DNA of 64,000 nucleotides from Minisyncoccota bacterium (GCA_035403785.1 DAONFW010000001.1:21595-85594), one strand, 5' to 3'. Counted from the first letter of the stretch, positions 1 through 47,105 are shown. Program-made: numbers and translations. Notes: generated by a model from the sequence alone, not told the origin.

Positions 1-58
1 TGGGGGGAGCCGGCAAAAAATGGAAAGGAAAATTTTTGGTTTTGGTTCCGACGCTTCA
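1..58. repeat. Left copy (truncated by window edge) of long inverted repeat X1; reverse complement of 4792..4850
   Basis: Read directly from the sequence: 1..58 equals the reverse complement of about 4792..4850 (ggaaccaaaaccaaaaattttcctttccattttttgccggctcccccc). The partner copy continues to 4995, so this copy presumably extends beyond the left window edge. Confidence 0.8.
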
Positions 59-360
59 TTCCTCCAGAAAGGACTTGTATTTATATTTTAGCATTGTGGC
101 GATATTTTGTCCGTCCTTTCCTCCGTCATTCGCGTCGGTGCGAGGCGCTCCCGTATCCGCGTTTTGTGGTAGTTCTATCGTCCTCTCACACTTCACAATC
201 ACCTCACATAGGCCGTTCGCATTCGCTCACGATGCCTGCTCGGTGCTTGCTTCGTGTTCGCTCCGTGACTTCGTTTAAGCCTGTGGTAACTCTAAAAAGC
301 GGATTGTGCTGAGGCACAAGCAAGTTTATATGTGCTTGCCCCACCCGCCCACGTGCGCGC

Positions 361-390
361 ACAGAAAACCACTCGCTAACGCGAGTGGCT
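361..390 (-). terminator. GC hairpin (ccactcgc-taac-gcgagtgg) just downstream of the minus-strand ORF that ends at 400
   Basis: Perfect 8-bp stem with a 4-nt loop. An A-run precedes it on the plus strand, which is a T-run on the minus strand. Confidence 0.4.
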
Positions 391-399
391 CCCTTGTGA

Positions 400-1737
400 T
401 CATTTAATCTTTAAGAACAAATCGGTAATACCTTTGAGTAAATTTTCATCCGGCACTAAATCTTTAAGCTCTTTTGCAAATGACAAGAAACTTTCCGTTT
501 CTTTTTCATTACTAGCATTCAATAATTCTATTTTTTCTTTCTCTTTCTTTACCTTTTTCCAATCAATAGATTTCTCGTAAGGTTCAGTATAAAGTTTCTC
601 AATGGTTTTCCTTATGAAGGTCGTAGTCTCACCGTCTGACCCCTTTTCTTTAATTTTTTGAATTAGGAAATCTGCGTGGTTGCGCATGACTTCGGCTACA
701 GTTGCCTTGAATGAATATTTTTCCTCTAAATCCCGCTCAGTACCATATCGTCTAATTGCAAAAGTAATCAAAAAGAGTAGTGGCGAAGTAAGCGTTAAGC
801 GATAGAACAGAGATTCCCATTTAGGAATTTCACCTCCATTATGCAAAAGAATTTCCTTTACATCAAAAATAAAATAGAGAAGGATAGAAAGAGCAACAAT
901 ACCCAACGAGAAAATCGCTAACCAAATATAGCTATTCCTGCGTAGTAATTTAGCCCTATTTTGAAACGAATTAGCAAAACCCGTGTCTGTAATGAGGTCT
1001 GCTATTTTTTCAACCTCGGATCGTTTTTCTGTCGCGATATCAAGATTCTTTTGTATGTCATCTCGCAGTTGTTCTGATTTTTTCTTATTCCCTTCGATCT
1101 CAGAAAGGTGTTTCTGTGATTGATCACGAAAAGACTGAATTTCTGTAGCAACAGCAGTTGCTTTTTTCTGCAAATCTTGAACTTGCGCAAGAACTGCTCC
1201 CAAGCCGGTATTCTGGTCAGTAATTTTTGCATTAACCGCGACAAATTCATTGTAGGCATTTTGAATTTGTGTGATTTTTTCTTGAACTTGCCCCAGTAAT
1301 TCATTAATTTTCCCTAACTGTTGCGTCGCGGTTGTTTTGGCTGTTTCAATATCTGTTCGCAGGTTATTAGCTGTCAGAACAAGTGACTCTATTTCTCCCT
1401 CTCTACCCTCGATTTTTCCTTTTATGTTTTCAAATTTACGCAAACCTTCATCAATCTGAGTAATACTGGATTGTGCTTTTTCAAGATTGCTTTTTATTTC
1501 TGCAACAAAAGTTGCGGAATCATTCTTTGCGTTCTCAATAGTCCCAAGTCGCTCCCGGGCATCGTTTGAGATTTTTTCGATCTCATTCTGTTTTGGTACA
1601 AGGGTTGCTTGTGTAGCTTCAAATTTAATTTGAAGTGCTGAAATTTTCTCCAAAATATCTTTGGCTTTGTTGTATTGGCTCTTGATGTTCCTTAATTCTT
1701 CAGGACTCAAGTTAAAATTGTCGTTTTCGTCTGGCAT
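400..1737 (-). CDS. Hypothetical coiled-coil protein with two central TM helices (possible 2TM effector or abortive-infection-like protein); island 1 cargo
   Basis: 445-aa ORF. The N-terminal ~270 aa are E/K/Q-rich heptad-like sequence. Two hydrophobic helices follow (IWLAIFSLGIVALSILLYFIF; LTLTSPLLFLITFAI), then a ~120-aa charged tail. No recognisable enzyme motif. The gene is divergent from the LexA-like gene. Confidence 0.6.
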   Translation of the reverse strand: MPDENDNFNLSPEELRNIKSQYNKAKDILEKISALQIKFEATQATLVPKQNEIEKISNDARERLGTIENAKNDSATFVAEIKSNLEKAQSSITQIDEGLRKFENIKGKIEGREGEIESLVLTANNLRTDIETAKTTATQQLGKINELLGQVQEKITQIQNAYNEFVAVNAKITDQNTGLGAVLAQVQDLQKKATAVATEIQSFRDQSQKHLSEIEGNKKKSEQLRDDIQKNLDIATEKRSEVEKIADLITDTGFANSFQNRAKLLRRNSYIWLAIFSLGIVALSILLYFIFDVKEILLHNGGEIPKWESLFYRLTLTSPLLFLITFAIRRYGTERDLEEKYSFKATVAEVMRNHADFLIQKIKEKGSDGETTTFIRKTIEKLYTEPYEKSIDWKKVKKEKEKIELLNASNEKETESFLSFAKELKDLVPDENLLKGITDLFLKIK

Positions 1738-1749
1738 AAATTAATTGTG

Positions 1750-1792
1750 GATAACCGGGGACTTGTTTAGGTTATCTTTAGGTATTATAATC
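1750..1792 (+). promoter_or_regulatory. Palindromic operator candidate GATAACC-N13-GGTTATC overlapping a -10-like TATTATAAT in the divergent promoter region
   Basis: Seen in sequence: gataaccggggacttgtttaggttatc, then tattataat 6 bp before the ATG at 1798. It lies between the divergent 400..1737 and lexA-like genes. Confidence 0.45.
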
Positions 1793-1797
1793 TAACT

Positions 1798-2424
1798 ATG
1801 AAAAAGAAGTCAAGCGTTGGAATAGGTAAACCGACAAAGCGGGAAGCTGAAATCCTACAATTCGCACGAGAGTATCGTCAAGAAAATGGATTCTCCCCCT
1901 CACTGGTTGAGATTGCTAAACATTTTAAGCGTTCCGTGCCCACAATTCATCAACATGTCTATTCTTTGCGAAGCAAGAACCTTCTTTTGATAGATAAGGG
2001 CAAAAAGCGTTCAATCAATGCTTTACATAATCACAGGGTTTCGGAAGTAATGATACCTCTAATGGGAATTATTTCTGCCGGTGGTCCAATTGAGGCCATC
2101 CGCGATCCAAAACCAGTAGAAGTTCCGCGAAGTATGCTTTCCCCCGGACATGACTACTACGCACTAAAGGTTTCCGGGCTGAGCATGATTGAGGAAGGAA
2201 TATCAGATGGAGACGTTGTGATTGTAAGAGATCAACCAACAGTAGATGACGGAGAAAAAGCAGTCGCGTATATGCCAGATAGAAACGAAGTAACGCTCAA
2301 AAAAATATACAGAGAAAAAGGTCGGATAAAACTTGTTCCAGCAAATCAAACCATGAAGCCGTTTTATGAATCAAACGTGGTCATTCAAGGAAAGGTCGTA
2401 GGAGTATTAAGAAAAGAATTTTAA
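1798..2424 (+). CDS. lexA: LexA-like repressor (N-terminal winged HTH plus C-terminal S24 peptidase with an Ala-Gly self-cleavage site)
   Basis: HTH region LVEIAKHFKRSVPTIHQHV. Cleavage-site-like ISAGGP. Ser nucleophile in GLSM and Lys in TLKKI. Length of 208 aa is typical. Confidence 0.75.
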   Translation: MKKKSSVGIGKPTKREAEILQFAREYRQENGFSPSLVEIAKHFKRSVPTIHQHVYSLRSKNLLLIDKGKKRSINALHNHRVSEVMIPLMGIISAGGPIEAIRDPKPVEVPRSMLSPGHDYYALKVSGLSMIEEGISDGDVVIVRDQPTVDDGEKAVAYMPDRNEVTLKKIYREKGRIKLVPANQTMKPFYESNVVIQGKVVGVLRKEF

Positions 2425-2433
2425 AATAAACTT

Positions 2434-4008
2434 ATGTCATTAGTAACAATACACGAAGCATCAAAATGGGCGACGGACTATCTTGAAAAAGAGGTATCGC
2501 CAACAAATATTTCTTACCTTGTTCAATATGGTAAGGTTAAGAAACTTGGAGAAAATGGGTCAACCCTTGTTGATTTGAATGATTTGAAAAAGTATTACGA
2601 ATCATGGAAAGGTAAACGAGAGATTGATTGGAAAAAACAACTTGGTGATGATTTAAACTGGGCGTTGTCTTTTGATAATCTCAGGGAAAAAGATACGACG
2701 AAGCATGTTCATAGATTACATCCATACAAAGGAAAATATATTCCGCAACTTGTTGAATATTTTATTGATTCCCACATTGATGATTTTAAAAAAGAAGTTT
2801 ATTTTAAAACCGGTGATATAGTCCTCGATCCTTTTCTGGGTTCAGGAACAACAATTATTCAATCACTAGAAATGGGTATCCATTCCGTGGGTATTGATGT
2901 GTCTGAGTTTAATTGCATGATTGCGAGTTGCAAGGCAACAAACTATGATCACGACTATTTGCAGAAAGCAATTAAAAAAATGCTCTCCGCAATAGATACT
3001 TTTGAGCATGATAATAGAATCCAAGAATTTGAAACAGAGTTGTTGGCAGAATTGGCAAAGTTTAATAACAAACATTTTCCCGGCTCAGATTTCAAATATA
3101 AAATAAATCAGGGAAATTTTGATGAAAAAAAGTTTTCTTCAGAAAAAGAAAGGGAGTTTTTGCCTACATATCAGAAATTACTCAAAAAATATTCAATAAA
3201 ACTGAAACAAGACAAAACTGAGTCATTTTTAGATACTTGGTTTATGGATAATGTGAGAAAAGAAATTGATCATGTTTTTAACACTATAAAACAAGAGAAG
3301 GATACAAAAACAAAAAAGATTCTCGCTCTAATTTTGAGCCGAACAATTAGATCGTGTCGAGCTACAACACACAGCGATCTTGCTACCCTAAAAGAACCTC
3401 AACTAACAACATATTATTGCTATAAGCACAAAAAGATTTGCAAACCGTTGTTTTCTATAAAAACAATGCTTAATCGTTACGCTTACGATACTGTTTCAAG
3501 GATCAAGGAATTTGAAAGGTTGCGAAAACCAGTTCATTATTCTGCTATTGCTGGTGATTCAAGAGTTGTGGATATTTTTGAAAAAGTTGAAAAGCAAAAC
3601 CCAGAGTTCGCAAAAATTCTTAAAAAACAAAAAATTTCAGGTATTTTCTGCTCGCCTCCATATGTTGGACAGATTGATTATCACGAACAACACGCCTACG
3701 CCTATGACTTGTTAGGATTTAAGAGAAAAGATGATCTAGAAATTGGCCCACTTTACAAAGGACAAGGACAAGAGGCACGCAGATCATACGCACAAGGAAT
3801 AGCCGATGTGCTAAATAACTGTAAGAAATATCTAAAAGATGATTACGATATTTTCCTTGTGGCAAACGATAAATATAATCTTTATCCAGAAATTGCTGAA
3901 AAATCTGGAATGAAGATTGTTAATCAATTTAAAAGACCTGTTTTGAATCGAACAGAACGGGACAGGAATCCATATTCCGAAATAATTTTTCATTTTAAAT
4001 CAATATAA
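2434..4008 (+). CDS. Type II DNA methyltransferase, amino-MTase (N6-adenine or N4-cytosine), alpha-class motif order
   Basis: Motif I DPFLGSGTT at about aa 135. Motif IV SPPY (IFCSPPYVGQIDY) at about aa 410, with a long intervening target-recognition region. Confidence 0.75.
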   Translation: MSLVTIHEASKWATDYLEKEVSPTNISYLVQYGKVKKLGENGSTLVDLNDLKKYYESWKGKREIDWKKQLGDDLNWALSFDNLREKDTTKHVHRLHPYKGKYIPQLVEYFIDSHIDDFKKEVYFKTGDIVLDPFLGSGTTIIQSLEMGIHSVGIDVSEFNCMIASCKATNYDHDYLQKAIKKMLSAIDTFEHDNRIQEFETELLAELAKFNNKHFPGSDFKYKINQGNFDEKKFSSEKEREFLPTYQKLLKKYSIKLKQDKTESFLDTWFMDNVRKEIDHVFNTIKQEKDTKTKKILALILSRTIRSCRATTHSDLATLKEPQLTTYYCYKHKKICKPLFSIKTMLNRYAYDTVSRIKEFERLRKPVHYSAIAGDSRVVDIFEKVEKQNPEFAKILKKQKISGIFCSPPYVGQIDYHEQHAYAYDLLGFKRKDDLEIGPLYKGQGQEARRSYAQGIADVLNNCKKYLKDDYDIFLVANDKYNLYPEIAEKSGMKIVNQFKRPVLNRTERDRNPYSEIIFHFKSI

Positions 4009-4012
4009 TTTT

Positions 4013-4795
4013 ATGGCACTATCAAAAGAACAAGTTAAAAATGTCGAGGATGTACTAAAAGCAAGTCTCAGAAACAAATTCCAAAATTACAAACCGGAAC
4101 CGGCTTCGATGCCATTCCATACTCGTCTTTTGGGTAAGGATAGATTGGCACTTTATTCATTTATCCATTCTCTCAATACTAATTTTGGAACAAGTATTTT
4201 TGAACCGGTCGGCTTAGCTTTGGCGCAAAAGAATTTCAAAATGGCTACATGCCAAGCTACTGCCGGAGATCGTATAAGCACCGGCGCACAAGCAGAAATA
4301 CAAAAAATTATTGATGGACTAACGACGGCAACATCATCACCAAACAAAAAAGAGGAAATTGAACGAATAAGAAAAGTTTGTCAGTCTGGTGAGATGATAA
4401 AAGCAAAACCTACCAAAGTAGATTTAATGTTTGAATCAAAAGACGGCGGTTATTATTTATTTGATATAAAAACAGCAAAACCTAATGCTGGAGGATTTAA
4501 GGAATTTAAACGAACACTACTTGAATGGGTCGCTGTGACTTTGGCGAACAATCCAAAAGCCGATATAAACACATTTATCGCAATTCCATATAATCCTTAC
4601 GAACCAGAGCCTTACACACGATGGACAATGCGTGGAATGCTTGATTTGGATAATGAGCTTAAAGTAGCTGATGAATTTTGGGATTTTCTTGGTGGTAAAG
4701 GCACATACAAAGATTTACTAGATTGTTTTGAACGAGTTGGAATTGAACTTCGTGGCGAAATAGATGACTACTTTAAGCGCTTCAATAAAAAATAA
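4013..4795 (+). CDS. Putative cognate type II restriction endonuclease
   Basis: The start lies 4 bp after the MTase stop on the same strand. There is a possible D..D-x-K catalytic signature (KDGGYYLFDIK). No other homology is recognisable by eye. Confidence 0.45.
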   Translation: MALSKEQVKNVEDVLKASLRNKFQNYKPEPASMPFHTRLLGKDRLALYSFIHSLNTNFGTSIFEPVGLALAQKNFKMATCQATAGDRISTGAQAEIQKIIDGLTTATSSPNKKEEIERIRKVCQSGEMIKAKPTKVDLMFESKDGGYYLFDIKTAKPNAGGFKEFKRTLLEWVAVTLANNPKADINTFIAIPYNPYEPEPYTRWTMRGMLDLDNELKVADEFWDFLGGKGTYKDLLDCFERVGIELRGEIDDYFKRFNKK

Positions 4796-4995
4796 GCGTC
4801 GGAACCAAAACCAAAAATTTTCCTTTCCATTTTTTGCCGGCTCCCCCCACACCCCCCGCCGAAAGAGGAATTGTAAGGAAAATTTTGGTTTTGGGATCGC
4901 GACCGAAGGGAGCGTGCGAGGCGCAAGTATCATTCGTCAAAATCCTGCGGATTTTGTCCGAAATACATTCGAACTTCGTCCAATACACACCGCCA
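4792..4995. repeat. Inverted repeat X1, right copy, ending in the CCGCCA core at 4990..4995
   Basis: 4792..4850 matches the reverse complement of 1..58. The distal 50 bp (ggattttgtccgaaatacattcgaacttcgtccaatacacaccgcca) is conserved with the end of X2 at 36857..36906. Confidence 0.65.
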
Positions 4996-5109
4996 AAATT
5001 GGAAATCGGAATCGGAAGCCGAAATGGGGTCGGCGCGAAGCGCCGACACAAACGCATTCCCGCCAAAAATTCCCGAATCCAAAAGGTTTTTCCACGCTCC
5101 GCGTGGCTC
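4990..5109. repeat. Inverted repeat Y1, copy A (120 bp, GC-rich, with internal hairpins)
   Basis: Appears to be a perfect reverse-complement match to 6512..6631 when read by eye in chunks. It contains the hairpins gtcggcgc-gaa-gcgccgac and ccacgc-tcc-gcgtgg. Confidence 0.85.
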
Positions 5110-5131
5110 TCTCGTTTGCCAATACAATTTT

Positions 5132-6730
5132 ATGAATAATCAAACCAAAAAGTTTTTCATATATACTCGCAAGTCTACGGATGACAAAGACAGACAAGTC
5201 CGCAGTATTGCAGACCAACTTTCTGAATTGAAAGAATTAGCAAGGAAAGAAGATTTAGATGTTGTTGATGTCTTTGTCGAAAAGCAGACCGCCAAAATAC
5301 CAGGTCGCCCAGTGTTTGGTGAGATGTTGGAGCGAATGGAGAAAGGCGAAGCCACTGGTATTTTGGCGTGGCATCCCGATAGACTTGCTCGCAACTCGAT
5401 AGACGGAGGAAAAGTCATCTACCTCGTTGACACCGGTGTCATTTCAGAAATGAAATTCCCAACTTTTTGGTTTGATCCGACACCGCAAGGCAAGTTTATG
5501 CTTTCAATCGCTTTTTCGCAGTCCAAGTATTATGTGGACAATTTGAGCGAAAATATTAAGCGTGGACATAGAAACAAAGTGAAAGAAGGAATATGGCCTC
5601 AAATGTCGCCGCTAGGATATATAAACGAGGGCGGGAAAATTGTCGTTGATGAAAATATCGCACCTTTAATCAAGAAAACATTTGAGGCATATTCGTCTGG
5701 GTCTTTCACTTTGCGACAACTTCGCGACAAATTTAATGAACTTGGATTGAAGCGAAAAAGCGGAAAGGAACTTGCGGTGTCGAATTATCAAAAACTTTTG
5801 AAAAACCCAATTTACACAGGTTTGATGTTGTATAACGGCGAGATACACGAAGGTAAGCACGAACCGATTATTACAAAGAAACTTTTTGATTCCGTTCAAG
5901 AAGTGATGATGAGAAAATCTAAACCGAAGTCGCGAGGATTGAAACCATTTTTGTACAGAGGATTTTTCCGTTGCGGAGAATGTAGTTGCTTCATTACCAC
6001 CGAAACACAGAAGGGTCATAATTATTTGCGATGTACCAAACGGAAAAATCCTTGTTCACAAAAATATACTCGTGAGGAAACCATCACTTCTGAAATTCAA
6101 AAGGAAATCAAAAAAGTTTCTTTGCCAGACGATTGGGCTTCTTGGATGTTAGTGGAAAATAGAAAAGATATATTGAGTGAAGCCCAATTGTCTACGCTTT
6201 TTGCAGACAACACAAAAGCCGATATTTCTCTTTTGGATTCTAAAATTGAGAAGCTGATGAACGCATATTTAGAGAACGCACTTTCGCTAGACGAGTATCG
6301 AGATATGAAAAACAAACTTGTGAACGAAAAACAGCTTCTCAAAGAGAAATTATCGGCTTTTGAGAAAAAAGCGAATAATCGGTTCGAACTTACCGAAAAG
6401 TTTTTGAAATACAATGTGGAATTGGCAAACGAGTGTACAAATGAAGAAAAACTTCATTTGTACAAAAAAGTCGGTTCGAACTTTCAAATTAAGGATCGAA
6501 CCGTACTTTTTGAGCCACGCGGAGCGTGGAAAAACCTTTTGGATTCGGGAATTTTTGGCGGGAATGCGTTTGTGTCGGCGCTTCGCGCCGACCCCATTTC
6601 GGCTTCCGATTCCGATTTCCAATTTTGGCGGAGGCGGAGGGATTCGAACCCTCGATGCCCTTTCAGACATACAGACTTTCCAGGTCTGCGCACTAGACCG
6701 CTATGCGACGCCTCCAAAATTTCTTATTAA
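5132..6730 (+). CDS. Large serine recombinase (resolvase/invertase catalytic domain, recombinase domain and zinc ribbon)
   Basis: The ATG at 5132 aligns with the paralog start MDNINLQTKKIFLYARKSTDE. Catalytic Ser is in YTRKSTDD. The Cys cluster FRCGECSCFITT...LRCTKRKNPC is present. Homology to the paralog ends near aa 465 (GSNFQIKDRTVLFEP). The last ~70 codons are encoded by repeat Y1 copy B and antisense tRNA-Ser, so the functional end is probably earlier than the ORF stop. Confidence 0.85.
   Translation: MNNQTKKFFIYTRKSTDDKDRQVRSIADQLSELKELARKEDLDVVDVFVEKQTAKIPGRPVFGEMLERMEKGEATGILAWHPDRLARNSIDGGKVIYLVDTGVISEMKFPTFWFDPTPQGKFMLSIAFSQSKYYVDNLSENIKRGHRNKVKEGIWPQMSPLGYINEGGKIVVDENIAPLIKKTFEAYSSGSFTLRQLRDKFNELGLKRKSGKELAVSNYQKLLKNPIYTGLMLYNGEIHEGKHEPIITKKLFDSVQEVMMRKSKPKSRGLKPFLYRGFFRCGECSCFITTETQKGHNYLRCTKRKNPCSQKYTREETITSEIQKEIKKVSLPDDWASWMLVENRKDILSEAQLSTLFADNTKADISLLDSKIEKLMNAYLENALSLDEYRDMKNKLVNEKQLLKEKLSAFEKKANNRFELTEKFLKYNVELANECTNEEKLHLYKKVGSNFQIKDRTVLFEPRGAWKNLLDSGIFGGNAFVSALRADPISASDSDFQFWRRRRDSNPRCPFRHTDFPGLRTRPLCDASKISY
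6512..6631. repeat. Inverted repeat Y1, copy B, overlapping the recombinase 3' end and abutting the tRNA-Ser 3' end
   Basis: Reverse complement of 4990..5109. Its last 6 nt (tggcgg) are the terminal CCGCCA of the tRNA. Confidence 0.85.
6626..6715 (-). tRNA. tRNA-Ser (anticodon GGA), class II with a long variable arm
   Basis: Reverse complement reads GGAGGCG-TC-GCAT...; anticodon stem-loop CAGAC-CTGGAAA-GTCTG; T arm GAGGGTTCGAATCCCTC; acceptor CGCCTCC-G-CCA. Length 90 nt. Confidence 0.85.
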
Positions 6731-22352: not shown

Positions 22353-24539
22353 TTATTTCAAACTATTTATCACTGTATTTGTCTTAGGACCAATAATACC
22401 ATCACCTACTAACTTGTTAGCTAATTGGAACTTAATGACTGCTTTTTTAGTTAAAGTACCAAAGTAGTTTGTCTCATGTCCTGGTGAACCTGCTCCTGTA
22501 GTAGCTACTTGATAACCATGAGTGTTTAAGAACTTTTGGAGTTCTTTTACGTCATTGTTTATCATAGAGTATTTTAGGAGTTTGGTGAAGGTGAAGGAAG
22601 TTGCTGAAGTATTACTAAATTGTGATTGTAATTGTGCAGCTTCTGTTGTTTTACCCATTGATACTAAGTTGGCCACTTGAGCTCCTAGAGATGAGCCGGA
22701 AGAAGTGTGAGACCTTGGAGTTAAAATTGTAGTAAAATTCCAAAATGTTTTATTTGAAATCGCCCCAATAGGATTACCAGACAAATCAGTAACAGCACCC
22801 TCTTCGGTTAAAACATAATATCCTGTATTTTCATCTAATACATTAGATGGATTAACAGTGACAACATTACCTACTATGGTTACACTAGGATCACCACCCG
22901 TTACTGTTTCAACTAATGAATCATCAGATGTTTTATAAATTCTAAAAGTTTTACCATTTCCAATTAAAATATCTTCATTAAAAGTTATAGCTAAATTTGT
23001 ATCTACTGCTACATCAATAGCATTATCTAATGGATTAAATAAAGAAACAGTAGGAGGAATAACATCTTCTAAAACAAGTTTAGAAATAAAACTATCCCAA
23101 TCACCAAAAGAAGTTAAAGTAGTTGTTCCTACTCCTGGATCAAAACCACCTGTACCAGAAAAAGATCCTGCAACCCAAACATTATCTCCCGAAGAATCAA
23201 CAGCAACACTTGCATCATAACTCGAACCTGAACCCATTTGTTTTGCCCAAACAAAATTACCATCTGAATCAAGTTTTAAAACGAATTTACTATTACCAGC
23301 TGAAGCCAAATTATAGGTTCCTGCTCCAGGATCAAAATCAACTGTACTATTAAAAAATCCAGCGGTATAAGTATTACCACTTGAATCAATTGCAATACCA
23401 AAAGATTCATCTTCGGCTCCTGTACCTCCTATTTGTTTTACCCATACAAAATTTCCATCTGAATCAAGTTTTAAAATAAAAATATCCTCCGTTCCAGAAG
23501 TAGCTATTAATTTATTTTCTGCTACTCCAGGATCAAAATCAACCGTTCCAGTAAAATATCCGGTAAGATACAAATTATTCCCAGTAAAATCAAGAACTGA
23601 ATCAAACGGGGTGCTTGCACCCACACCAGAACCTACTATTTGTTTTGCCCATACAAAATTACTAGAAGAATCTAACTTCACAACAAAACTATCTGTTCCT
23701 ACAGCTGTAAGAGGAAAGATTCCTGCCCCAGGGTCAAAATCATCAGTTCCATCAAAATAACCAGAAAAATAAACATTGCCATTAGAATCAACTGCAGCAG
23801 AAGGACTAGTCCCCCATCTATATGTTCCCATTTGTTTTGCCCATACAAAATTACCATCTGAATCCAGTTTTAAAACATACGAAGCACTATTGTTCGGTGA
23901 GACAATATCAACAACAGAAGCTCCTGGATCAAAATCAACAGTTCCAGAAAAAGAACCCGAAATATAAATATTATTTAATGAATCAAGAGTTAAATTTTTA
24001 CTATCCGCAGAATCAGTACCAGTATTATGCCCTCCTACTTGTTTTGCCCAAACAAAATTTCCACTTGAATTTAATTTAACAATAAAAACATCTGTTCCAC
24101 CAACAGCCGTAAGGGGAAAAGTTCCTGCCCCAGGATCAAAATCAACAGTTCCAGAAAAATAACCAGTTATATAAACATTTTTAGAAGCATCCACTTTCAA
24201 AGAACGACCAAAAGCCTGATTTCCAGCTGTTCCACCCATTTGTTTTGCCCATACAAAATTACCATCTGAATCCATTTTTAAAACAAAAGCATCATAAAGA
24301 GCAGATGTTAAAGAAACATTTCCTATCCCCGGATCTAAATCAGCTGTCCCAGAAAAAAAACCAGTGGTATAAACATTACCGCTTGAATCAATCGCATTAG
24401 AATAAGAAATATCTCTTCCAGCTCCTCCAATTTGCCCGACCCAATTCAAAAGGACATTATCAGCTTTTGCTAACTGAGGAAACATCACACCAAATACTAA
24501 GAATAAAACAAAAACACTTAAAACTAAATATTTTTTCAT
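22353..24539 (-). CDS. Secreted SBBP (beta-propeller) repeat protein with Ig-like region and C-terminal peptidoglycan-binding domain
   Basis: Signal peptide. At least 8 repeats of DSxGNxYxTGxFSGTxDFDPG...FVxKLDSDGNFVWAKQ. The C-terminus LQKFLNTHGY...GxxTxxAVxxFQ matches the PG_binding_1 pattern. Confidence 0.75.
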   Translation of the reverse strand: MKKYLVLSVFVLFLVFGVMFPQLAKADNVLLNWVGQIGGAGRDISYSNAIDSSGNVYTTGFFSGTADLDPGIGNVSLTSALYDAFVLKMDSDGNFVWAKQMGGTAGNQAFGRSLKVDASKNVYITGYFSGTVDFDPGAGTFPLTAVGGTDVFIVKLNSSGNFVWAKQVGGHNTGTDSADSKNLTLDSLNNIYISGSFSGTVDFDPGASVVDIVSPNNSASYVLKLDSDGNFVWAKQMGTYRWGTSPSAAVDSNGNVYFSGYFDGTDDFDPGAGIFPLTAVGTDSFVVKLDSSSNFVWAKQIVGSGVGASTPFDSVLDFTGNNLYLTGYFTGTVDFDPGVAENKLIATSGTEDIFILKLDSDGNFVWVKQIGGTGAEDESFGIAIDSSGNTYTAGFFNSTVDFDPGAGTYNLASAGNSKFVLKLDSDGNFVWAKQMGSGSSYDASVAVDSSGDNVWVAGSFSGTGGFDPGVGTTTLTSFGDWDSFISKLVLEDVIPPTVSLFNPLDNAIDVAVDTNLAITFNEDILIGNGKTFRIYKTSDDSLVETVTGGDPSVTIVGNVVTVNPSNVLDENTGYYVLTEEGAVTDLSGNPIGAISNKTFWNFTTILTPRSHTSSGSSLGAQVANLVSMGKTTEAAQLQSQFSNTSATSFTFTKLLKYSMINNDVKELQKFLNTHGYQVATTGAGSPGHETNYFGTLTKKAVIKFQLANKLVGDGIIGPKTNTVINSLK

Positions 24540-34176: not shown

Positions 34177-34267
34177 ATTTAAAATTTAAAATATCTAATA
34201 GTTAGATAAACTAAATATTATCATAAAGTTATTTTTTGTGCAAATAGAATAATTATTGAATTTAAAA

Positions 34268-34462
34268 ATCTGGCGGTGTTTTTTGGACGAAGTTCGAACG
34301 TTTTTTGACGAAAATCCTGAAAACTAATTTGGACTCGGCGGGGCAAACTATTTTTCTGGGGGAATGGAATTGCCCCGCCTCGGCTTTCTTCCCGCCCGCA
34401 GGAGGGGTCTGGGGAGGAATGCGGGCGGGTTTTTGAACCTTTCCTTTTTCGCTTCCGAATTT
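34268..34462. repeat. Inverted repeat X2, left copy (about 195 bp, GC-rich), starting with a tggcgg core
   Basis: Perfect reverse complement of 36712..36906 read by eye. The sequence at 34463..34480 differs from its partner, but each version is itself an 18-bp palindrome. Confidence 0.85.
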
Positions 34463-34493
34463 CGTGCCAGTTGAAAACTGGCGCGCCACCTAT

Positions 34494-35477
34494 TTAACTA
34501 TTTTTTAAATCACTCATTATTTTTTTTGCCAAGTGATGAGCAAAATTTACTGCAACAGCATTTCCAATCATTTTATAACCGTCAGCAATATCACGATATT
34601 TGAAAATAAAATCATCGGGAAATGTTTGTATTCTTGCACACTCACGAACAGACAAACGGCGGTATAATTGTTCTTTTCCGGGAACAAAAATTCTTTTATT
34701 TTGTTCAATAAATTTCATTTTTGGTGCTTGTGGGTGAATTGGTGCGTGGCGACCACCAGCTTGAATTGTGAAAGAAGGCTCGTCCCAAGAACGGACACGA
34801 TTTCGCGACATATAAATCGTTGAGAAACCGCCATTCATATATTCATGGTTTGGAATTTTCAACTCGTCGCCGTTTGTCTTGTTTTTATCTTTAGCTGGTT
34901 TTGCTAAACGCAAATCAAAAATAGCGTCTTTCAAAACAGGTTTATATTTTTGTGGTTCTGGAAATTCAAATTTCTTTTTTAATTTTTTATGATAACCAAC
35001 AATAATAACGCGAAGCCTATCCTCTGGAACATCATAATCATTTGCGTTTAGAAGTTTGCAAGAAATTACATATCCGGCATTTTCAAATTCCTTGATTATA
35101 TTTGAAAATGCCTCTTTGTGTTTTGGGTGTAAAATCCCCGATACATTTTCTGCAAGAAAAAATTTTGGCTGTTTTTCTTTCAATAAACGAATGTAGTCAT
35201 AAAATAATTGACCTCGCTTGTCGTTTATTCCACGCCCAGCACCAGCCTCACTCCAACTTTGGCAAGGAGGTCCGCCAATAATTCCGTCAACATCGGGGAT
35301 TTCAGACGCTGGAACATCAACAATACTTCTCTTGTCTAATTTTGTTTTTGGAAAATTATACTCAAATGTTTCCCAAATTGTCGGGTCGTATTCATTCGCC
35401 CAAACGACATGAAAACCAGCTCTTTCAAAGCCTAAATCTAACCCACCCGCACCTGTAAATAAAGAAGCTAATTTCAT
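34494..35477 (-). CDS. dcm: DNA (cytosine-5)-methyltransferase
   Basis: Motif I LFTGAGGLDLGF. Motif IV GGPPCQSWS. Motif VI ENV. Motif X GNAVAVN. Confidence 0.9.
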   Translation of the reverse strand: MKLASLFTGAGGLDLGFERAGFHVVWANEYDPTIWETFEYNFPKTKLDKRSIVDVPASEIPDVDGIIGGPPCQSWSEAGAGRGINDKRGQLFYDYIRLLKEKQPKFFLAENVSGILHPKHKEAFSNIIKEFENAGYVISCKLLNANDYDVPEDRLRVIIVGYHKKLKKKFEFPEPQKYKPVLKDAIFDLRLAKPAKDKNKTNGDELKIPNHEYMNGGFSTIYMSRNRVRSWDEPSFTIQAGGRHAPIHPQAPKMKFIEQNKRIFVPGKEQLYRRLSVRECARIQTFPDDFIFKYRDIADGYKMIGNAVAVNFAHHLAKKIMSDLKNS

Positions 35478-35478
35478 A

Positions 35479-36327
35479 TTATTTTCTAAAACTCAATAAT
35501 TTCGCCTCAAGCAATTTTGCTGGATTATTTGGCGATTTTATTTTTATATCTTTAATTAAAAAGTTATCACTAACTAAACTTTCAAGATGTTTTCTGTCTT
35601 TTTCTGGAAAAGACAAATATTTTTCTTTCAGCAAAATTGCATTAACAAAAAATTCAGAATTTTGCTCTGCCGGAACAACATAATCAAAAACTTTTATAGG
35701 ATTTTCAATTCCCCACATTCCACGAATACGCAAATATGTTATTCCAAGAGGATCAACGCGATTTACTCTGCCGAGTTCGTTTGTTTCCGAAAATTCAACA
35801 TCTTGTAATTCATTAACACCTTTTGAAATTTTATCTCTTATTCTTTCGTAAACTTCTTTATTTGCGGAATAACAATTACCATAAACAAGCCACAAGGCTT
35901 TTAGCTTGTCATCTTTTGAAACTCCAACAACATAAACTAAATCTTTTTCCCGCCAATCCTCACAATTTTTGCAAGCAGTGGTTATCATCGGACTATCAGA
36001 AAATAGTTTGTCTTTAGGATACGAACTATTAAGTGCAATTCCCGAACGCAAACTTTCAATTTTCTTAACTTCTATCGCATCACCTTGCTTGATAATAATG
36101 TCTGGCGGATTATTTTGATTTCCAATATAAGAAAAATATTTGCTGTAAATTTCATTTTTCTTTTCAAGATTATTTTCATTTAGGGAATTGCAAAATAAGT
36201 CTTTGATATAAAATTCTAAAGCGTCGCCCATACTGTTTGCTCGGTTGGCAGCACGATAATGAGAAACCAAATTTGTAATTGGATTTTTGACTAAATTTGA
36301 TATTGCGATAAGTAAATTTGTTTCCAT
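35479..36327 (-). CDS. Type II restriction endonuclease (PD-(D/E)xK fold), cognate of the m5C MTase
   Basis: PPDIIIKQGDAIEVKK fits PD-x10-ExK. It is 1 bp upstream of dcm on the same strand. Confidence 0.55.
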   Translation of the reverse strand: METNLLIAISNLVKNPITNLVSHYRAANRANSMGDALEFYIKDLFCNSLNENNLEKKNEIYSKYFSYIGNQNNPPDIIIKQGDAIEVKKIESLRSGIALNSSYPKDKLFSDSPMITTACKNCEDWREKDLVYVVGVSKDDKLKALWLVYGNCYSANKEVYERIRDKISKGVNELQDVEFSETNELGRVNRVDPLGITYLRIRGMWGIENPIKVFDYVVPAEQNSEFFVNAILLKEKYLSFPEKDRKHLESLVSDNFLIKDIKIKSPNNPAKLLEAKLLSFRK

Positions 36328-36331
36328 AGTT

Positions 36332-36526
36332 TTATTTTATTAAATCCTCAATCGGCACATTAAGTGCCTTCGCGATTTTTTTAATTGTATCAATAGTTGG
36401 ATTTTGTTGTTTGCCTGCCTCGATATTGATTATCGTATTATTGGAAACATCAGCAAGACGGGCTAGTTTTTCTTGCGACAAACCCATTTTTTCTCTTATT
36501 CGTTTGATTTTGCTTGACTCTACCAT
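36332..36526 (-). CDS. Controller (C) protein, XRE-family HTH
   Basis: 64-aa HTH (LSQEKLARLADVSNNTIINIEAGK). It lies immediately upstream of the REase gene. Confidence 0.7.
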   Translation of the reverse strand: MVESSKIKRIREKMGLSQEKLARLADVSNNTIINIEAGKQQNPTIDTIKKIAKALNVPIEDLIK

Positions 36527-36556
36527 ATTAAAATAGTAATATTAAATTGTGGTATA

Positions 36557-36600
36557 ATAATTATATGCTTCAACAAAATAACCACAATATAATATTACCA
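36557..36600 (-). promoter_or_regulatory. Candidate C-box operator palindrome (TTGTGGT ... ACCACAA) upstream of the C-protein gene
   Basis: Seen in sequence: attgtggtataataattatatgcttcaacaaaataaccacaat. Confidence 0.4.
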
Positions 36601-36711
36601 AAATATTTCGACTTCGTAAAGAAAAAAGGGAGTTCCTTAGCGTTGCCCGCGAATGGGTTGGGTGGGTCAAGGGCAACATCTCTTTTGGTGGCGCATTTTG
36701 CTTTGCAAAAT

Positions 36712-36906
36712 ACGAAATTCGGAAGCGAAAAAGGAAAGGTTCAAAAACCCGCCCGCATTCCTCCCCAGACCCCTCCTGCGGGCGGGAAGAAAGCCGAGGC
36801 GGGGCAATTCCATTCCCCCAGAAAAATAGTTTGCCCCGCCGAGTCCAAATTAGTTTTCAGGATTTTCGTCAAAAAACGTTCGAACTTCGTCCAAAAAACA
36901 CCGCCA
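36712..36906. repeat. Inverted repeat X2, right copy, ending in the CCGCCA core (36901..36906)
   Basis: Reverse complement of 34268..34462. Confidence 0.85.
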
Positions 36907-37034
36907 AGTTTTACATTCAGCGAAATTGAAAGATGTTGCCTCGGCGCAAAGCGCCTCGGCATGGTATTTTTCCGCAATTTTGAAGGCATTTTTGAAATCC
37001 AAAACCAAAGTGCGGTCGGCAATGCGGAAGTTCG
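36901..37034. repeat. Inverted repeat Y2, copy A (about 133 bp)
   Basis: Perfect reverse complement of 38518..38650 read by eye. It contains the ggcgc-aaa-gcgcc hairpin. Confidence 0.85.
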
Positions 37035-37148
37035 CCGTGCAAAGCACGGGCAAAATGAAATTTTGCAAACCAATCTTTTTTCTTTCGCTTTCGGCGAAAG
37101 GTTGAGCGTATTTTTCTTTGATTGCCCAAAAACTAATTTCAAAACAAT

Positions 37149-38702
37149 ATGGACAACATAAATTTACAAACCAAAAAGATTTTTCTCTATGCCCGTAAAT
37201 CCACGGACGAACCCGAAAGGCAGGTTTTGAGTATTGAGGCGCAAATGTTTGAATTGCGGGAATTTGCGAAAAAAGAAGGACTAAATATCGTCCGTGAATT
37301 TGTGGAAAGCAAAACCGCCAAAGAGCCGGGGCGTGAGATTTTTAACGAAATGATCACAAGCATAGAGAAAAATGAAGCAGAGGGAATTTTAGCGTGGCAC
37401 CCCGACCGCCTCGCTCGAAATAGCATAGACGGCGGACGAATAATCTATTTCGTAGATACTGGCAAAATTACCACGCTAAAATTTCCAACTTTTTGGTTTG
37501 ATCCGACACCGCAGGGAAAATTTATGTTGAGTATCGCTTTTGGGCAATCAAAATATTATGTGGATAATCTTTCGGAAAATATAAAGAGGGGTATTCGCCA
37601 GAAATTGCGAAATGGAATATGGCCCGCTTGGGCGCCACTTGGGTATGTGAACGACAAGAACGCCCGCTGTATTGCCGTGGACAAGGAAAAGGCAAAGTAT
37701 ATCAAGCGGGCTTTTGAAATGTACGCGACTGGCGAATACCCCCTCGCTCAAATCCGAAAGATTATCAATTCCTTGGGCTTGGTTGGCAAGAAAGGCAAAA
37801 TGCTTTCCGTCTCAAATTATCAGTATATGCTGAAAAATAAAATCTATTACGGAATGATTGAATATAACGGCGAATTGTATGACGGAAAGCACGAACCGAT
37901 TATCACAAAGAGACTTTTTGATTTATGCCAAGAAGTGATGATGAATAAGTCAAAACCGAAAACACCAAAACTCAAGCCATACATTTTTAGAGGATTTTTC
38001 CGTTGTGGGGAGTGCGGTTGTTTCATTACCACCGAAACGCAAAAAGGTCATAACTATTTGCGATGTACGAAACGGAAAAATCCTTGTTCGCAAAGGTATG
38101 TAAGAGAGGACGCCATCACTTCTCAAATTAAAGAGGAAATCAAAAAAGTTTCTTTGTCTTCCGCTTGGGCAAACGCTTCAATCAATTATTTTGAAAATGA
38201 AAAAATGAAACTTGCCCAAGCGGAAAGCTCTTTCGCCCAAGAAGCGAGAAATGAGCTTGTAGAGATAGAAACAAAACTTGATCGTTTGCTTGATTTACAA
38301 CTGGACGGCAGTTTGTCGCAAGCAGAATATACCGCTAAAAAGCACAAGCTCATTCTCGCCAAAAAGGATTTGGAAGAAAAAATCACTGCTTTTGGGCGAA
38401 AGAGCAATAATCGGTTCGAACTTACCATTGCCTTTCTAAAAGACGCCAACCAAGCCGAAAAATACGCTCAACAAGAAAATCCCGAAAGGATTCGGGATTT
38501 TCTCAAAAAGATTGGTTCGAACTTCCGCATTGCCGACCGCACTTTGGTTTTGGATTTCAAAAATGCCTTCAAAATTGCGGAAAAATACCATGCCGAGGCG
38601 CTTTGCGCCGAGGCAACATCTTTCAATTTCGCTGAATGTAAAACTTGGCGGAGACGGCGGGATTCGAACCCGCGATGGGTTTTGAAGCCCATGCCTCTTT
38701 AG
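37149..38702 (+). CDS. Large serine recombinase (paralog of 5132..6730)
   Basis: YARKSTDEPERQ catalytic motif. Zinc ribbon FRCGECGCFITT...LRCTKRKNPCSQ. The C-terminal tail is encoded by repeat Y2 copy B and then antisense tRNA-Ser, giving WRRRRDSNPR as in the paralog. Confidence 0.85.
   Translation: MDNINLQTKKIFLYARKSTDEPERQVLSIEAQMFELREFAKKEGLNIVREFVESKTAKEPGREIFNEMITSIEKNEAEGILAWHPDRLARNSIDGGRIIYFVDTGKITTLKFPTFWFDPTPQGKFMLSIAFGQSKYYVDNLSENIKRGIRQKLRNGIWPAWAPLGYVNDKNARCIAVDKEKAKYIKRAFEMYATGEYPLAQIRKIINSLGLVGKKGKMLSVSNYQYMLKNKIYYGMIEYNGELYDGKHEPIITKRLFDLCQEVMMNKSKPKTPKLKPYIFRGFFRCGECGCFITTETQKGHNYLRCTKRKNPCSQRYVREDAITSQIKEEIKKVSLSSAWANASINYFENEKMKLAQAESSFAQEARNELVEIETKLDRLLDLQLDGSLSQAEYTAKKHKLILAKKDLEEKITAFGRKSNNRFELTIAFLKDANQAEKYAQQENPERIRDFLKKIGSNFRIADRTLVLDFKNAFKIAEKYHAEALCAEATSFNFAECKTWRRRRDSNPRWVLKPMPL
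38518..38650. repeat. Inverted repeat Y2, copy B, abutting the tRNA-Ser 3' end
   Basis: Reverse complement of 36901..37034. Confidence 0.85.
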
Positions 38703-38737
38703 CAAAGAGGTACGTTAGACCACTCTGACACGTCTCC
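38646..38737 (-). tRNA. tRNA-Ser (anticodon GCU), class II
   Basis: Reverse complement reads GGAGACG...; anticodon loop CCTCT-TTGCTAA-AGAGG; long variable arm; GGTTCGAATCC T-loop; CCA is encoded. Confidence 0.85.
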
Positions 38738-38809
38738 TTGAACTTTACTCTAACATATTTTCATTATTTTTCCATTTATGCTATATTGACTTTATATTTA
38801 AACAAAAAC

Positions 38810-38898
38810 GGAGGCGTGGATGAGTGGTTTAAATCAACGGTTTACTAAACCGTCGTACCCTAACCGGTACCGTGAGTTCGAATCTCACCGCCTCCGCA
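38810..38898 (+). tRNA. Class II (Ser-type) tRNA with apparent anticodon ACU (unusual A34); possible tRNA-Ser variant or pseudo-tRNA
   Basis: Acceptor GGAGGCG/CGCCTCC. D-stem GAT/ATC with GG in the loop. Anticodon arm ACGGT-TTACTAA-ACCGT. Variable arm GTACC-CTAACC-GGTAC. T arm GTGAG-TTCGAAT-CTCAC. The 3' CCA is not fully encoded (GCAG). Confidence 0.6.
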
Positions 38899-46680: not shown

Positions 46681-46712
46681 GATAATTTTATGAAAGTTAT
46701 TATATCAAATTC

Positions 46713-47105
46713 TGTGGAGATGGGGGAAATCGAATCCCCGTGCAGAAGGTTACTGAAATGAAATCTACATACTTAGTTTGTTTTTTTGTTTAAACCTAAA
46801 AACTAATAAGCAAACAAAATGTTTTTAGATCGATCCTCTTTGTTTCGGAAAAGACCCGAGGCTTGTCTTCCCTATCCCGAAAATATTATGCCCCAAACTT
46901 ATATATCGGAAGTCTATAAGCGAGACACCAGCCCTCTTAAGCGAAAGCTGGAGCAAAAGCGAAGTCCTTCATACCGAAGTATGGAGAAACTGAATCTTTT
47001 ACTTTAGAAGCTAATTTTGCAATTAGTTTTTTGAATAAGTTAACGAGATTATTCAGCTCGGTATGCATCAAGACAAACAGCCAACTGTCTATGCCTTGCA
47101 TCCCC
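46713..47105 (-). ncRNA. ssrA: tmRNA (ssrA) adjacent to smpB
   Basis: The reverse complement begins GGGGATGCAAGGCAT. It ends with a T-arm-like GGGGATTCGATTTCCCC and acceptor CATCTCCA with a G3-U70 pair. An internal reading frame ...MKDFAFAPAFA-TAA resembles Mollicutes-type proteolysis tags. The region is otherwise noncoding. Confidence 0.75.

Follow-up and report, generated by a model that had tools for sequence, protein, structure and literature searches.

Islands at tRNA-Ser genes of a Minisyncoccota bacterium: probable integrated copies of a Patescibacteria-specific mobile element with a large serine integrase

A 64-kb stretch of one DNA strand from a Minisyncoccota bacterium (GCA_035403785.1 DAONFW010000001.1:21595-85594; hereafter the window) contains two islands, each composed of cargo genes, a gene for a large serine recombinase (LSR) and two pairs of nested inverted repeats, ending at the 3' end of a tRNA-Ser gene. 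Both islands are very probably integrated copies of a Patescibacteria-specific mobile element that is moved by the LSR, here also called the integrase. The nested repeats are the P and P' arms of three attachment (att) sites and not the terminal inverted repeats of a transposon, because an extra, complete and inverted attP lies between the cargo and the integrase gene. Small mobile islands with a tRNA-Ser-targeting large serine integrase proved to be very common in Patescibacteria (candidate phyla radiation, CPR), and the family is apparently undescribed. To our knowledge, the mobile elements of this group are hardly characterised. In the literature, no description was found of an integrase gene that crosses its own attP and is accompanied by a second inverted attP. 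A 2025 survey reported genomic islands in Patescibacteria, including genome nzgw456 (our locus L027); the words integrase, tRNA and inverted repeat are absent from its text (PMC12455944).

Layout of the two islands

On the plus strand, both islands show the order attR (B'/X), cargo, inverted complete attP (X'/Y'), LSR gene and attL (Y/tRNA-Ser), with the X repeats around the cargo and the Y repeats around the LSR gene; the slash marks a junction here and below. The att designations in the following list are assigned from junction comparisons.

Island 1
1-56: inner end of X1-left, P arm of attR; 100% inverted repeat with 4794-4849
57-399, plus strand: GC-rich non-coding module, candidate structured RNA, conserved in related elements
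400-1737, minus strand: cargo protein of 445 aa, an open reading frame (ORF) without a significant Pfam family; candidate coiled-coil protein with two transmembrane segments, the label of an earlier note on this DNA
1798-2424, plus strand: cargo LexA-like repressor (S24 peptidase and LexA DNA-binding domain; Pfam)
2434-4008, plus strand: cargo N4/N6 DNA methyltransferase (Pfam)
4013-4795, plus strand: cargo TdeIII-type restriction endonuclease (Pfam, E 8.5e-96)
4794-4995: X1-right, P arm of the interior inverted attP (inverted repeat)
4990-4995, plus strand: CCGCCA core of the interior attP, crossover probably within CCGC
4990-5109: Y1-left, P' arm of the interior attP (inverted repeat)
5132-6730, plus strand: LSR ORF as integrated, 532 aa (ORF, Pfam)
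6512-6631: Y1-right, P' arm of attL (inverted repeat), core TGGCGG at 6626-6631
6626-6715, minus strand: tRNA-Ser(GGA), B arm of attL (tRNA gene call)

Island 2
34265-34465: X2-left, attR (inverted repeat, junction comparison); core TGGCGG at 34271-34276, B' flank left of the core
34494-35477, minus strand: cargo C5 methyltransferase (Pfam/ORF)
35479-36327, minus strand: cargo NgoPII restriction enzyme (Pfam/ORF)
36332-36526, minus strand: cargo Xre-type helix-turn-helix (HTH) protein (HTH domain families from the identical gene in L087)
36712-37034: interior inverted attP (inverted repeats), with X2-right at 36712-36906, core at 36901-36906 and Y2-left at 36901-37034
37149-38702, plus strand: LSR, 517 aa as integrated (ORF, Pfam)
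38518-38737: attL (repeat and tRNA call), with Y2-right at 38518-38651 and tRNA-Ser(GCT) at 38646-38737, minus strand

Next to island 2
38810-38897, plus strand: tRNA-Ser(ACT) without an island, illustrating an empty attB; its 3' end ...CTCCGC encodes no CCA and borders on unrelated sequence

The earlier note, made from the sequence alone, had described nested repeats that appeared perfect over more than 100 bp, and had suggested aligning the arm pairs of island 1. Both pairs turned out to be 100% complementary: Y1 (4990-5109 / 6512-6631) over 120 nt and X1 (1-56 / 4794-4849) over 56 nt, the left X1 copy being cut by the window start so that only these 56 nt are checkable. The full length of X1-left is inferred to be ~200 nt by extrapolation from elements with the same type of X (L012, L017, and L027); the window begins downstream of the attR core and of the remainder of this arm. 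The second occurrence of the architecture, which the note had placed at 34.3-38.7 kb, was confirmed with X2 (34265-34465 / 36712-36912; 201 nt, 99%) and Y2 (36901-37034 / 38518-38651; 134 nt, 100%). A GC content of 55-65% in a ~33% GC genome had been given for the repeats; measured values were lower, 47-56% compared with 34.7% for the whole window. Seven inverted repeats of at least 35 nt are present in the 64 kb, five of them with at least one arm in the two islands, and all four long nested pairs are among those five. The chance expectation for a perfect inverted repeat of 120 nt is none. X1-right additionally holds an internal 30-nt hairpin (4802-4831 / 4869-4898).

Pfam searches agreed with the note on the large serine recombinase, the restriction-modification cargo and the LexA-like repressor, and no transposase was among the Pfam calls, again as the note had stated. 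The core at the tRNA-Ser 3' end was likewise recovered: CCGCCA constitutes the last 6 nt of both tRNA-Ser genes, (GGA) and (GCT), and these coincide with the outermost 6 nt of the adjoining Y arm. As proposed, the cores at the two ends of an island share one orientation; for island 2, TGGCGG direct repeats bound the element at 34271-34276 and 38646-38651. Two interpretations of the note need revision. It matched the layout to no known family, but the layout fits a serine-integrase integrative element with direct core repeats in attL and attR. Its impression of inverted rather than direct att-like ends is due to the one extra complete inverted attP.

Attachment sites

Three junctions per element were compared across 21 elements and the window. 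The P arm (X) is conserved, reading GATTTTGNCCGAAATACATTCGAACTTCGTCCAATACACA/CCGCCA, and the tRNA arm (B), corresponding to the T-arm/acceptor, reads ...GGTTCGAATCC...NCT/CCGCCA. Beyond the outer-left core, the B' arm has no likeness between elements, and one and the same sequence, P' (Y), adjoins both the tRNA and the recombinase start. Because P is conserved, B is the tRNA arm, B' is unrelated and Y acts as P' on both sides, the junctions are assigned by sequence comparison as attR (P/B', outer left), a complete inverted attP (P/P', interior) and attL (B/P', tRNA).

Between TTCGAA and CCGCCA the distance is always 16 nt in P arms and always 11 nt in the B arms of the tRNAs. For sites of serine integrases, an outer motif displaced inwards by 5 bp in attB as compared with attP is an accepted hallmark (PMC11722253), and the shift of TTCGAA reads as this attP/attB half-site signature.

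Most tRNA-Ser genes without an adjacent recombinase encode no CCA. Thirteen of 15 end in CCGC; in 10 of those, among them tRNA-Ser(ACT) of the window, the next nucleotides already belong to an unrelated flank, whereas CCGCCA is read in three. The natural variants CCGCAA and CCGCAT bound the crossover to CCGC. Next to a recombinase, all tRNA-Ser genes (72/72) continue into P'-type or element sequence and none (0/72) into a P arm. As tRNA-Ser genes without an encoded CCA would probably tolerate the wrong joint, this polarity looks enzymatic. Owing to the strict polarity with 0/72 wrong joints, a non-palindromic CC is favoured as the crossover dinucleotide. The same polarity speaks against models with a palindromic core, where excision of a single cassette would leave palindromic joints. 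Models with a single-stranded, folded attP in the style of CTX phage or integron attC were dropped by reasoning, since stem cleavage by a serine recombinase would leave hairpin-capped chromosome ends. Rfam contained no match for X or Y.

The integrase gene and its reading frame through attP

According to Pfam, the recombinase carries an N-terminal Resolvase domain (PF00239, residues 9-154, E 2e-19), followed by Recombinase (PF07508; DBD1) and Zn_ribbon_recom (PF13408; DBD2, the zinc ribbon that in serine integrases has a coiled coil inserted). It aligns to 3g13 and SPbeta Int, with the serine-nucleophile motif YTRKST invariant in 34 homologues, and residues 169-412 align to the A118/LI integrase 4kis. 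In the AlphaFold model (mean pLDDT 68.8), long helices span residues 333-432. The ratio of non-synonymous to synonymous substitution rates (dN/dS) of the recombinase body was 0.13, at a median dS of 0.58 between integrases. The Y-encoded part showed a dN/dS of 0.54 and a lower dS than the body, as expected because this linker doubles as a DNA site.

Neither recombinase ORF contains a stop codon before Y-right; both read via Y and TGGCGG into the tRNA antisense. In island 1, the body (5132-6511) is followed by a Y-encoded linker (6512-6625) and a tRNA-antisense tail RRRRDSNPR... (6629-6727) with the stop at 6730, giving ...FQFW/RRRRDSNPR... across the core. Y1-left is an inverted, untranslated copy of the gene's last 38 Y-encoded codons. 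On the opposite strand, Y-left and X-right together encode an alternative ending: ...FQFW/RCVLDEVRMYFGQNPQDFDE plus stop codon in island 1 (the native tail, from W through RCVLDEVRMYFGQNPQDFDE to the stop, at 4995-4930 on the minus strand, for a native protein of 519 aa) and ...CKTW/RCFLDEVRTFFDENPEN plus stop codon in island 2. In the attP-linked configuration, the integrase ends with the conserved helix RC.LDEVR.YF..NP, coded by the P arm. Because Y-left and X-right encode this ending, the conserved end motif of 45-48 nt, which is the P half-site, is also coding, namely for the integrase C-terminal helix on its other strand. Integration swaps the last ~20 integrase codons, i.e. the conserved terminal helix, for tRNA-antisense codons.

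All 240 of the nearest homologues in the database contain the Y-encoded peptide. They fall into two tail groups downstream of the W, whose codon TGG is CCA in reverse complement: a minority with RC.LDEVR.YF..NP and a majority with the antisense of various tRNA T-arms (..DSNPR..). The X-encoded tail is the most conserved stretch of the integrase C-terminus. In the AlphaFold model, the native tail forms a terminal helix (493-512) preceded by a disordered linker; the pLDDT (68.8) is too low for conclusions on helix packing. On long contigs, native-tail integrases were found exclusively in array-internal units.

A small protein gene over X'Y', upstream of the integrase, was considered and rejected; which frame is open varies from element to element, and the peptides are of low complexity. 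At least 100 stop-free codons occur in 41 of 49 copies of this stretch, and annotation pipelines call ORFs of 123-209 aa ending at the integrase ATG. The stretch is T-poor and GC-rich, with all six frames open. The stop-free frame is compositional and not a gene, and therefore provides no candidate for a directionality factor. Gene callers predict proteins of 120-200 aa across the interior attP (window 4764-5135 and 36547-37161; L002:9585-10004, L004:9571-10008). Such database entries are probably spurious, because the open frame varies between elements and all frames are open.

One locus (L098:9776-11539) holds a chimeric integrase gene with a 5' flank and N-terminus like those of rec1, the island 1 recombinase, and a 3' end and Y arm like those of rec2 from island 2. 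It sits after tRNA-Ser(GCT) on the plus strand without a Y inverted repeat, and looks like the product of homologous recombination between two integrase genes.

Distribution of the family

Homologue searches returned 6233 and 7975 matches, the top 120 for rec1 at 82-93% identity. A set with one genome for each species contained 282 relatives, from which 80 loci were retrieved (L-numbers). The architecture recurred as follows.

Y repeat on both sides of the complete copy: 58/60
Identity of 99% or more between these Y arms: 38/58
Copies abutting an X repeat, among those with at least 7 kb upstream: 19/28
X arms at least 99% identical: 19/19
Antisense tRNA-Ser (GGA, GCT, TGA, CGA or ACT) directly after the copy: 58/68

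Complete chromosomes account for two of the loci (OZ246398 and OY969413). Because the architecture recurs in many independent assemblies, we regard the element family as established and an assembly artefact as ruled out. The cargo varies between elements and comprises restriction-modification genes, a copper-resistance cluster or a single transporter. In L008 and L028, cargo of 95% identity resides at tRNA-Ser(GCT) and tRNA-Ser(TGA), respectively. The tRNA-Ser(ACT) isoacceptor, empty in the window, is occupied in L030 and L034. A more distant integrase (L010b, 40% identity) is located at tRNA-Ala with the same nested layout. No cassettes away from tRNA or att contexts and no target duplications were detected. 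The nearest annotated integrases, those of TP901-1, A118 and streptococcal phages, share <30% identity. A phage origin was considered and discarded, as IMG/VR held no relatives apart from one match of 24% identity.

Some island contigs (L005, L009, L011, L013, L017, and L024) sit in bins labelled Gammaproteobacteria, Actinomycetota, Bacteroidia or Bdellovibrionales, which reflects either binning errors or a wider host range.

Arrays, inversions and use of a second site

As judged from sequence, the two copies of each arm in an element evolve in concert, which keeps the interior attP the same as the outer arms: the copies are usually identical at a median dS of 0.58 between integrase bodies. 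In arrays (L003, L010, L062, L074, L099, L106-L108), new units adjoin the tRNA at attL, and the older integrase reads through its own Y into the X of the next unit, thereby regaining a native-type tail.

In L030, L052 and L034, a tRNA-Ser is joined to the Y upstream of the recombinase cassette (R) as well, in the order tRNA(+)/Y' - R - Y/tRNA(-). Recombination of the interior attP with a second attB is expected to give this product, so the interior site seems to have recombined with another tRNA-Ser gene. These convergent-tRNA-Ser cassettes (L030:9780-11584, L052:9439-11582, L034:9619-10001) also suggest chromosomal inversions or cassette exchange between tRNA-Ser loci.

The earlier note had pointed out that the inverted repeats would permit inversion, and inversion of the cargo was indeed seen between natural populations. 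In six samples, identical integrases go together with the same 9-kb cargo in either orientation (L099/L103 versus L100/L101/L102/L104). This case is unambiguous with regard to assembly, because the contigs are k141 contigs and the arms measure only 56 nt. L090, a strain-level variant of island 2, has the cargo flipped compared to the window and L087, and is assembly-ambiguous with its 201-nt arms. One arm of the L099-type element is devoid of the P half-site and core, so the cargo inversion points to homologous recombination rather than to the integrase. No flipped recombinase cassette was found in ~60 tRNA-adjacent units. A search for flipped or circular forms, in which the integrase 3' end is linked to the native tail, yielded long-contig cases (L001-L003, L022, L074, L099, L106-L108) that were all array-internal; the junction sequence itself cannot tell a circle from an interior attP.

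The region beside attR of island 2 is a hotspot of strain variation. Compared with window 34177-34270, L091:1-860 and L092:1-705 carry an identical MarR gene followed by an R.Pab1-like restriction enzyme or a SET-domain protein instead of island 2, and have neither a tRNA nor an X arm there.

Proposed mechanism

Our hypothesis is that a free circle would recombine its attP with the attB of a tRNA-Ser gene at a 2-nt crossover inside CCGC. Integration would leave the tRNA intact and would alter, probably weaken or silence, the integrase, because its terminal helix is replaced by tRNA-antisense codons; such a loss of activity would make the element self-limiting by design. The spare attP may serve as a spare copy of the integrase 3' end together with a site that keeps the island recombination-competent. 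Alternatively, the circle could have two sites in the manner of the 2-micron plasmid.

Among the possible roles of the spare attP we favour, though with considerable doubt, that this inverted site and the frame through attP might together constitute an integrase that is self-limiting and yet can be re-armed. The native enzyme would be restored beside an intact attP if, on rare occasions, the recombinase cassette flipped across the Y arms, or if a new element inserted at attL. Any other tRNA-Ser gene could then serve as a partner for the restored enzyme, and the conserved structured RNA described below would belong to the control of such an integrase.

Several observations weigh against these proposals. 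The integrase always reads towards the tRNA in ~60 tRNA-adjacent copies, while two equivalent attP sites predict two isomers. Possible reasons for this bias are counter-selection of an intact integrase beside a free attP, a hidden asymmetry, or a free form other than the one inferred. Native-tail integrases persist in arrays, so an intact enzyme beside attP-like sites is tolerated, and native-tail ORFs on ~2-kb contigs may be artefacts of the assembly graph. The inactivity of the tail-swapped integrase is a prediction. No conserved second protein was found in the element, and thus no candidate for a recombination directionality factor. L022b, an LSR island at locus L022 with 32% identity, has no interior attP, which shows this site not to be indispensable for integration at tRNA-Ser. 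The exact attB pattern was absent from Joint Genome Institute (JGI) metagenomes, and no circular form was found for the source genome. Regarding the unoccupied site that the earlier note had suggested looking for, no empty tRNA-Ser(GCT) allele was found for island 2, the strain-level contigs with MarR and DHQS neighbours all being occupied or differently arranged; the neighbour of island 1 is not on record. Without an empty site or a circle for this genome, current mobility of the two window copies is not shown.

Alternative explanations

The recombinase might instead act as a DNA invertase that flips the cargo or itself in a phase-variation switch (Hin/Gin/Pin or shufflon style) and does not move the element. 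Inverted sites do bound the segments, the cargo occurs in both orientations in natural populations, the non-coding module lies beside either X arm depending on the element, and JGI labels some homologues 'DNA invertase Pin-like'. We nevertheless consider this improbable. The enzyme has the full serine-integrase architecture of 517-532 aa with integrase-type C-terminal domains, not the ~190-aa form with a C-terminal HTH that characterises serine DNA invertases, and the same recombinase and arms are combined with unrelated cargos, four or five tRNA-Ser genes and unrelated B' flanks. Arrays and tRNA-flanked cassettes reflect intermolecular or long-range recombination. Moreover, the cargo genes lie wholly inside the segment with their own regulators, so that a flip does not obviously change expression, and the arm without P half-site and core in the L099-type inversion points to homologous recombination.

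Even less probable are two independent cassettes side by side, i.e. an insertion sequence (IS)-like unit R with 120-nt terminal inverted repeats and a non-autonomous unit C with 200-nt ones. The arrays, which alternate C and R, each with perfect arms, and the recombinase cassettes of L030 and L052, which lie between two tRNAs with no adjacent cargo, could be taken in this sense. However, the integrase frame is complete only across the Y/X junction, and the X-encoded tail is the part of the C-terminus with the highest conservation. Excision of single cassettes would need a palindromic crossover dinucleotide, and 0/72 tRNA/X junctions argues for a non-palindromic one. Target duplications and cassettes outside tRNA or att contexts, as noted, were not found. 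In terms of classification, an IS or transposon is further opposed by the missing transposase, by arms that end at att cores and by the 58/68 copies that abut tRNA-Ser.

Assembly artefacts (chimeric joins at repeats, or mixtures of circular and integrated forms), which the earlier note had named as grounds for refutation, are scarcely credible: many related contigs do break inside X'/Y', and the ~2-kb native-tail contigs could come from the assembly graph, but the architecture occurs twice in the window with different sequences and in >50 independent assemblies from different assemblers, including two complete chromosomes, 58/60 related genes from independent assemblies carrying the Y repeat and 58/68 abutting an antisense tRNA-Ser, and the inner junctions (cargo end-X' and Y'-integrase 5' end) are impossible by graph mis-traversal of an element with a single attP.

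Comparison with known systems

Mechanistically, the islands are serine-integrase integrative islands, an already known kind. Direct core repeats, one of them in the tRNA 3' end, and the same integrase and ends with differing cargo, loci and hosts place them among tRNA islands. They differ from all described examples that were found in the tRNA-Ser CCA-end target, the 4-nt core, the lack of a conserved B' half-site and the associated structured module, and further in the attP inside the integrase frame and the second inverted attP, which makes both element halves invertible cassettes.

With the phage-type serine integrases (A118/LI, TP901-1, SPbeta, Bxb1, phiC31) the elements share the domain architecture, the reaction of attP and attB to attL and attR at a short core, the 5-bp shift between P and B motifs, and the position of the integrase gene at the element end beside attL. 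They differ in their identity of <30% to any annotated integrase, the target in the last nucleotides of tRNA-Ser, the unconserved B' half-site, the attP inside the integrase frame and the second inverted attP. Phage genes and a recognisable directionality factor are missing, and the elements are absent from IMG/VR.

SSV1-type (fusellovirus) integrases are tyrosine recombinases of archaeal viruses with attP inside the int gene, which is split in two large parts. As general knowledge has it, integration partitions that gene and the integrated copy no longer codes for the native protein, similar to the islands. Here, in contrast, a serine integrase loses only its last ~20 codons and continues into the tRNA antisense.

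The predicted excised circle would resemble the yeast 2-micron plasmid (Flp/FRT), with two unique segments split by two identical inverted repeats, each holding a recombinase target, and with arms that evolve in concert. Flp, however, is a tyrosine recombinase acting on two identical sites, and no rep gene or replication function was identified in the elements, whose circle is only predicted. Serine integrases normally do not recombine attP with attP; SPbeta Int synapses them unproductively (PMC11722253).

Islander-type tRNA islands and tycheposons are likewise small cargo islands at tRNA 3' ends with tandem accretion and variable cargo including defence genes. In the account of PMC4383910, tRNA-gene islands rely for the most part on tyrosine integrases, and the tRNA segment that they duplicate is longer, as opposed to the serine integrase, the 4-6-nt core at the CCA end and the extra inverted attP found here. 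Shufflons and serine invertons (Rci/sfx; Hin, Gin, Pin) show similar segment arrays with inverted sites and both orientations. They employ a different enzyme type, and inversion here concerns segments with whole genes, not alternative gene ends, the one exception being the 3' end of the recombinase gene itself, which can continue in two ways. Unlike in shufflons and invertons, enzymatic catalysis of the cargo inversion is not shown for these elements.

Implications

Thousands of near-identical integrases, spread over many classes, make this a very abundant family. Given the defence and resistance cargo, it probably provides a major route by which the reduced-genome Patescibacteria exchange genes. 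If the doubtful re-arming did take place, the islands would be a main force behind gene flow in this group and behind its chromosome inversions between tRNA-Ser genes. The integrase seems to recognise the conserved T-arm/acceptor of tRNA-Ser and to need a 4-nt shared core without a conserved second half-site, which is unusual for serine integrases and makes this minimal-core targeting relevant to their use in genome engineering. The architecture also yields testable predictions, namely self-limitation, inversion and tRNA-to-tRNA chromosome rearrangement. In addition, the element holds an unclassified structured non-coding module.

The conserved non-coding module

The module at 57-399 is GC-rich, ~340 nt long and present in at least 20 related elements (e.g., L012:4229-4566, L004:4044-4368). 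Most matches start at the inner end of an X arm, and in different elements the module adjoins either arm. Rfam contained no family for it. The derived structure comprises 36 pairs (96.8% paired), with double changes at 10 pairs compared to 4.3 +/- 1.2 in shuffles. Frame-breaking indels, invariant G-U pairs on the plus strand and compensatory changes in helices were found, as well as an invariant loop GCCCCACCCACCCAG and a terminal hairpin at ~367-392. One deletion variant removes exactly the domain closed by one helix. Island 2 holds only a short hairpin version. The module is probably a structured RNA of the element.

Further features of the window

tRNA-Ser(GCT) on the minus strand and tRNA-Ser(ACT), with its unusual anticodon, on the plus strand form a divergent pair at 38646-38897 with ~70 nt between them. 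L059, L062 and L071 have this pair too, and L034 and L052 have it in reversed orientation. In island 1 (400-2424), the LexA/S24-type repressor is divergent from the 445-aa protein and upstream of the restriction-modification genes; the two might represent a separate defence or regulatory module. Approximately seven tandem units of 195-207 nt with 60-90% identity at 23131-24414, in minus-strand sense, probably belong to a gene for a repeat-domain protein unrelated to the islands. Finally, a transfer-messenger RNA (tmRNA) gene is located at 46712-47105 on the minus strand (Rfam RF00023, 122.9 bits).

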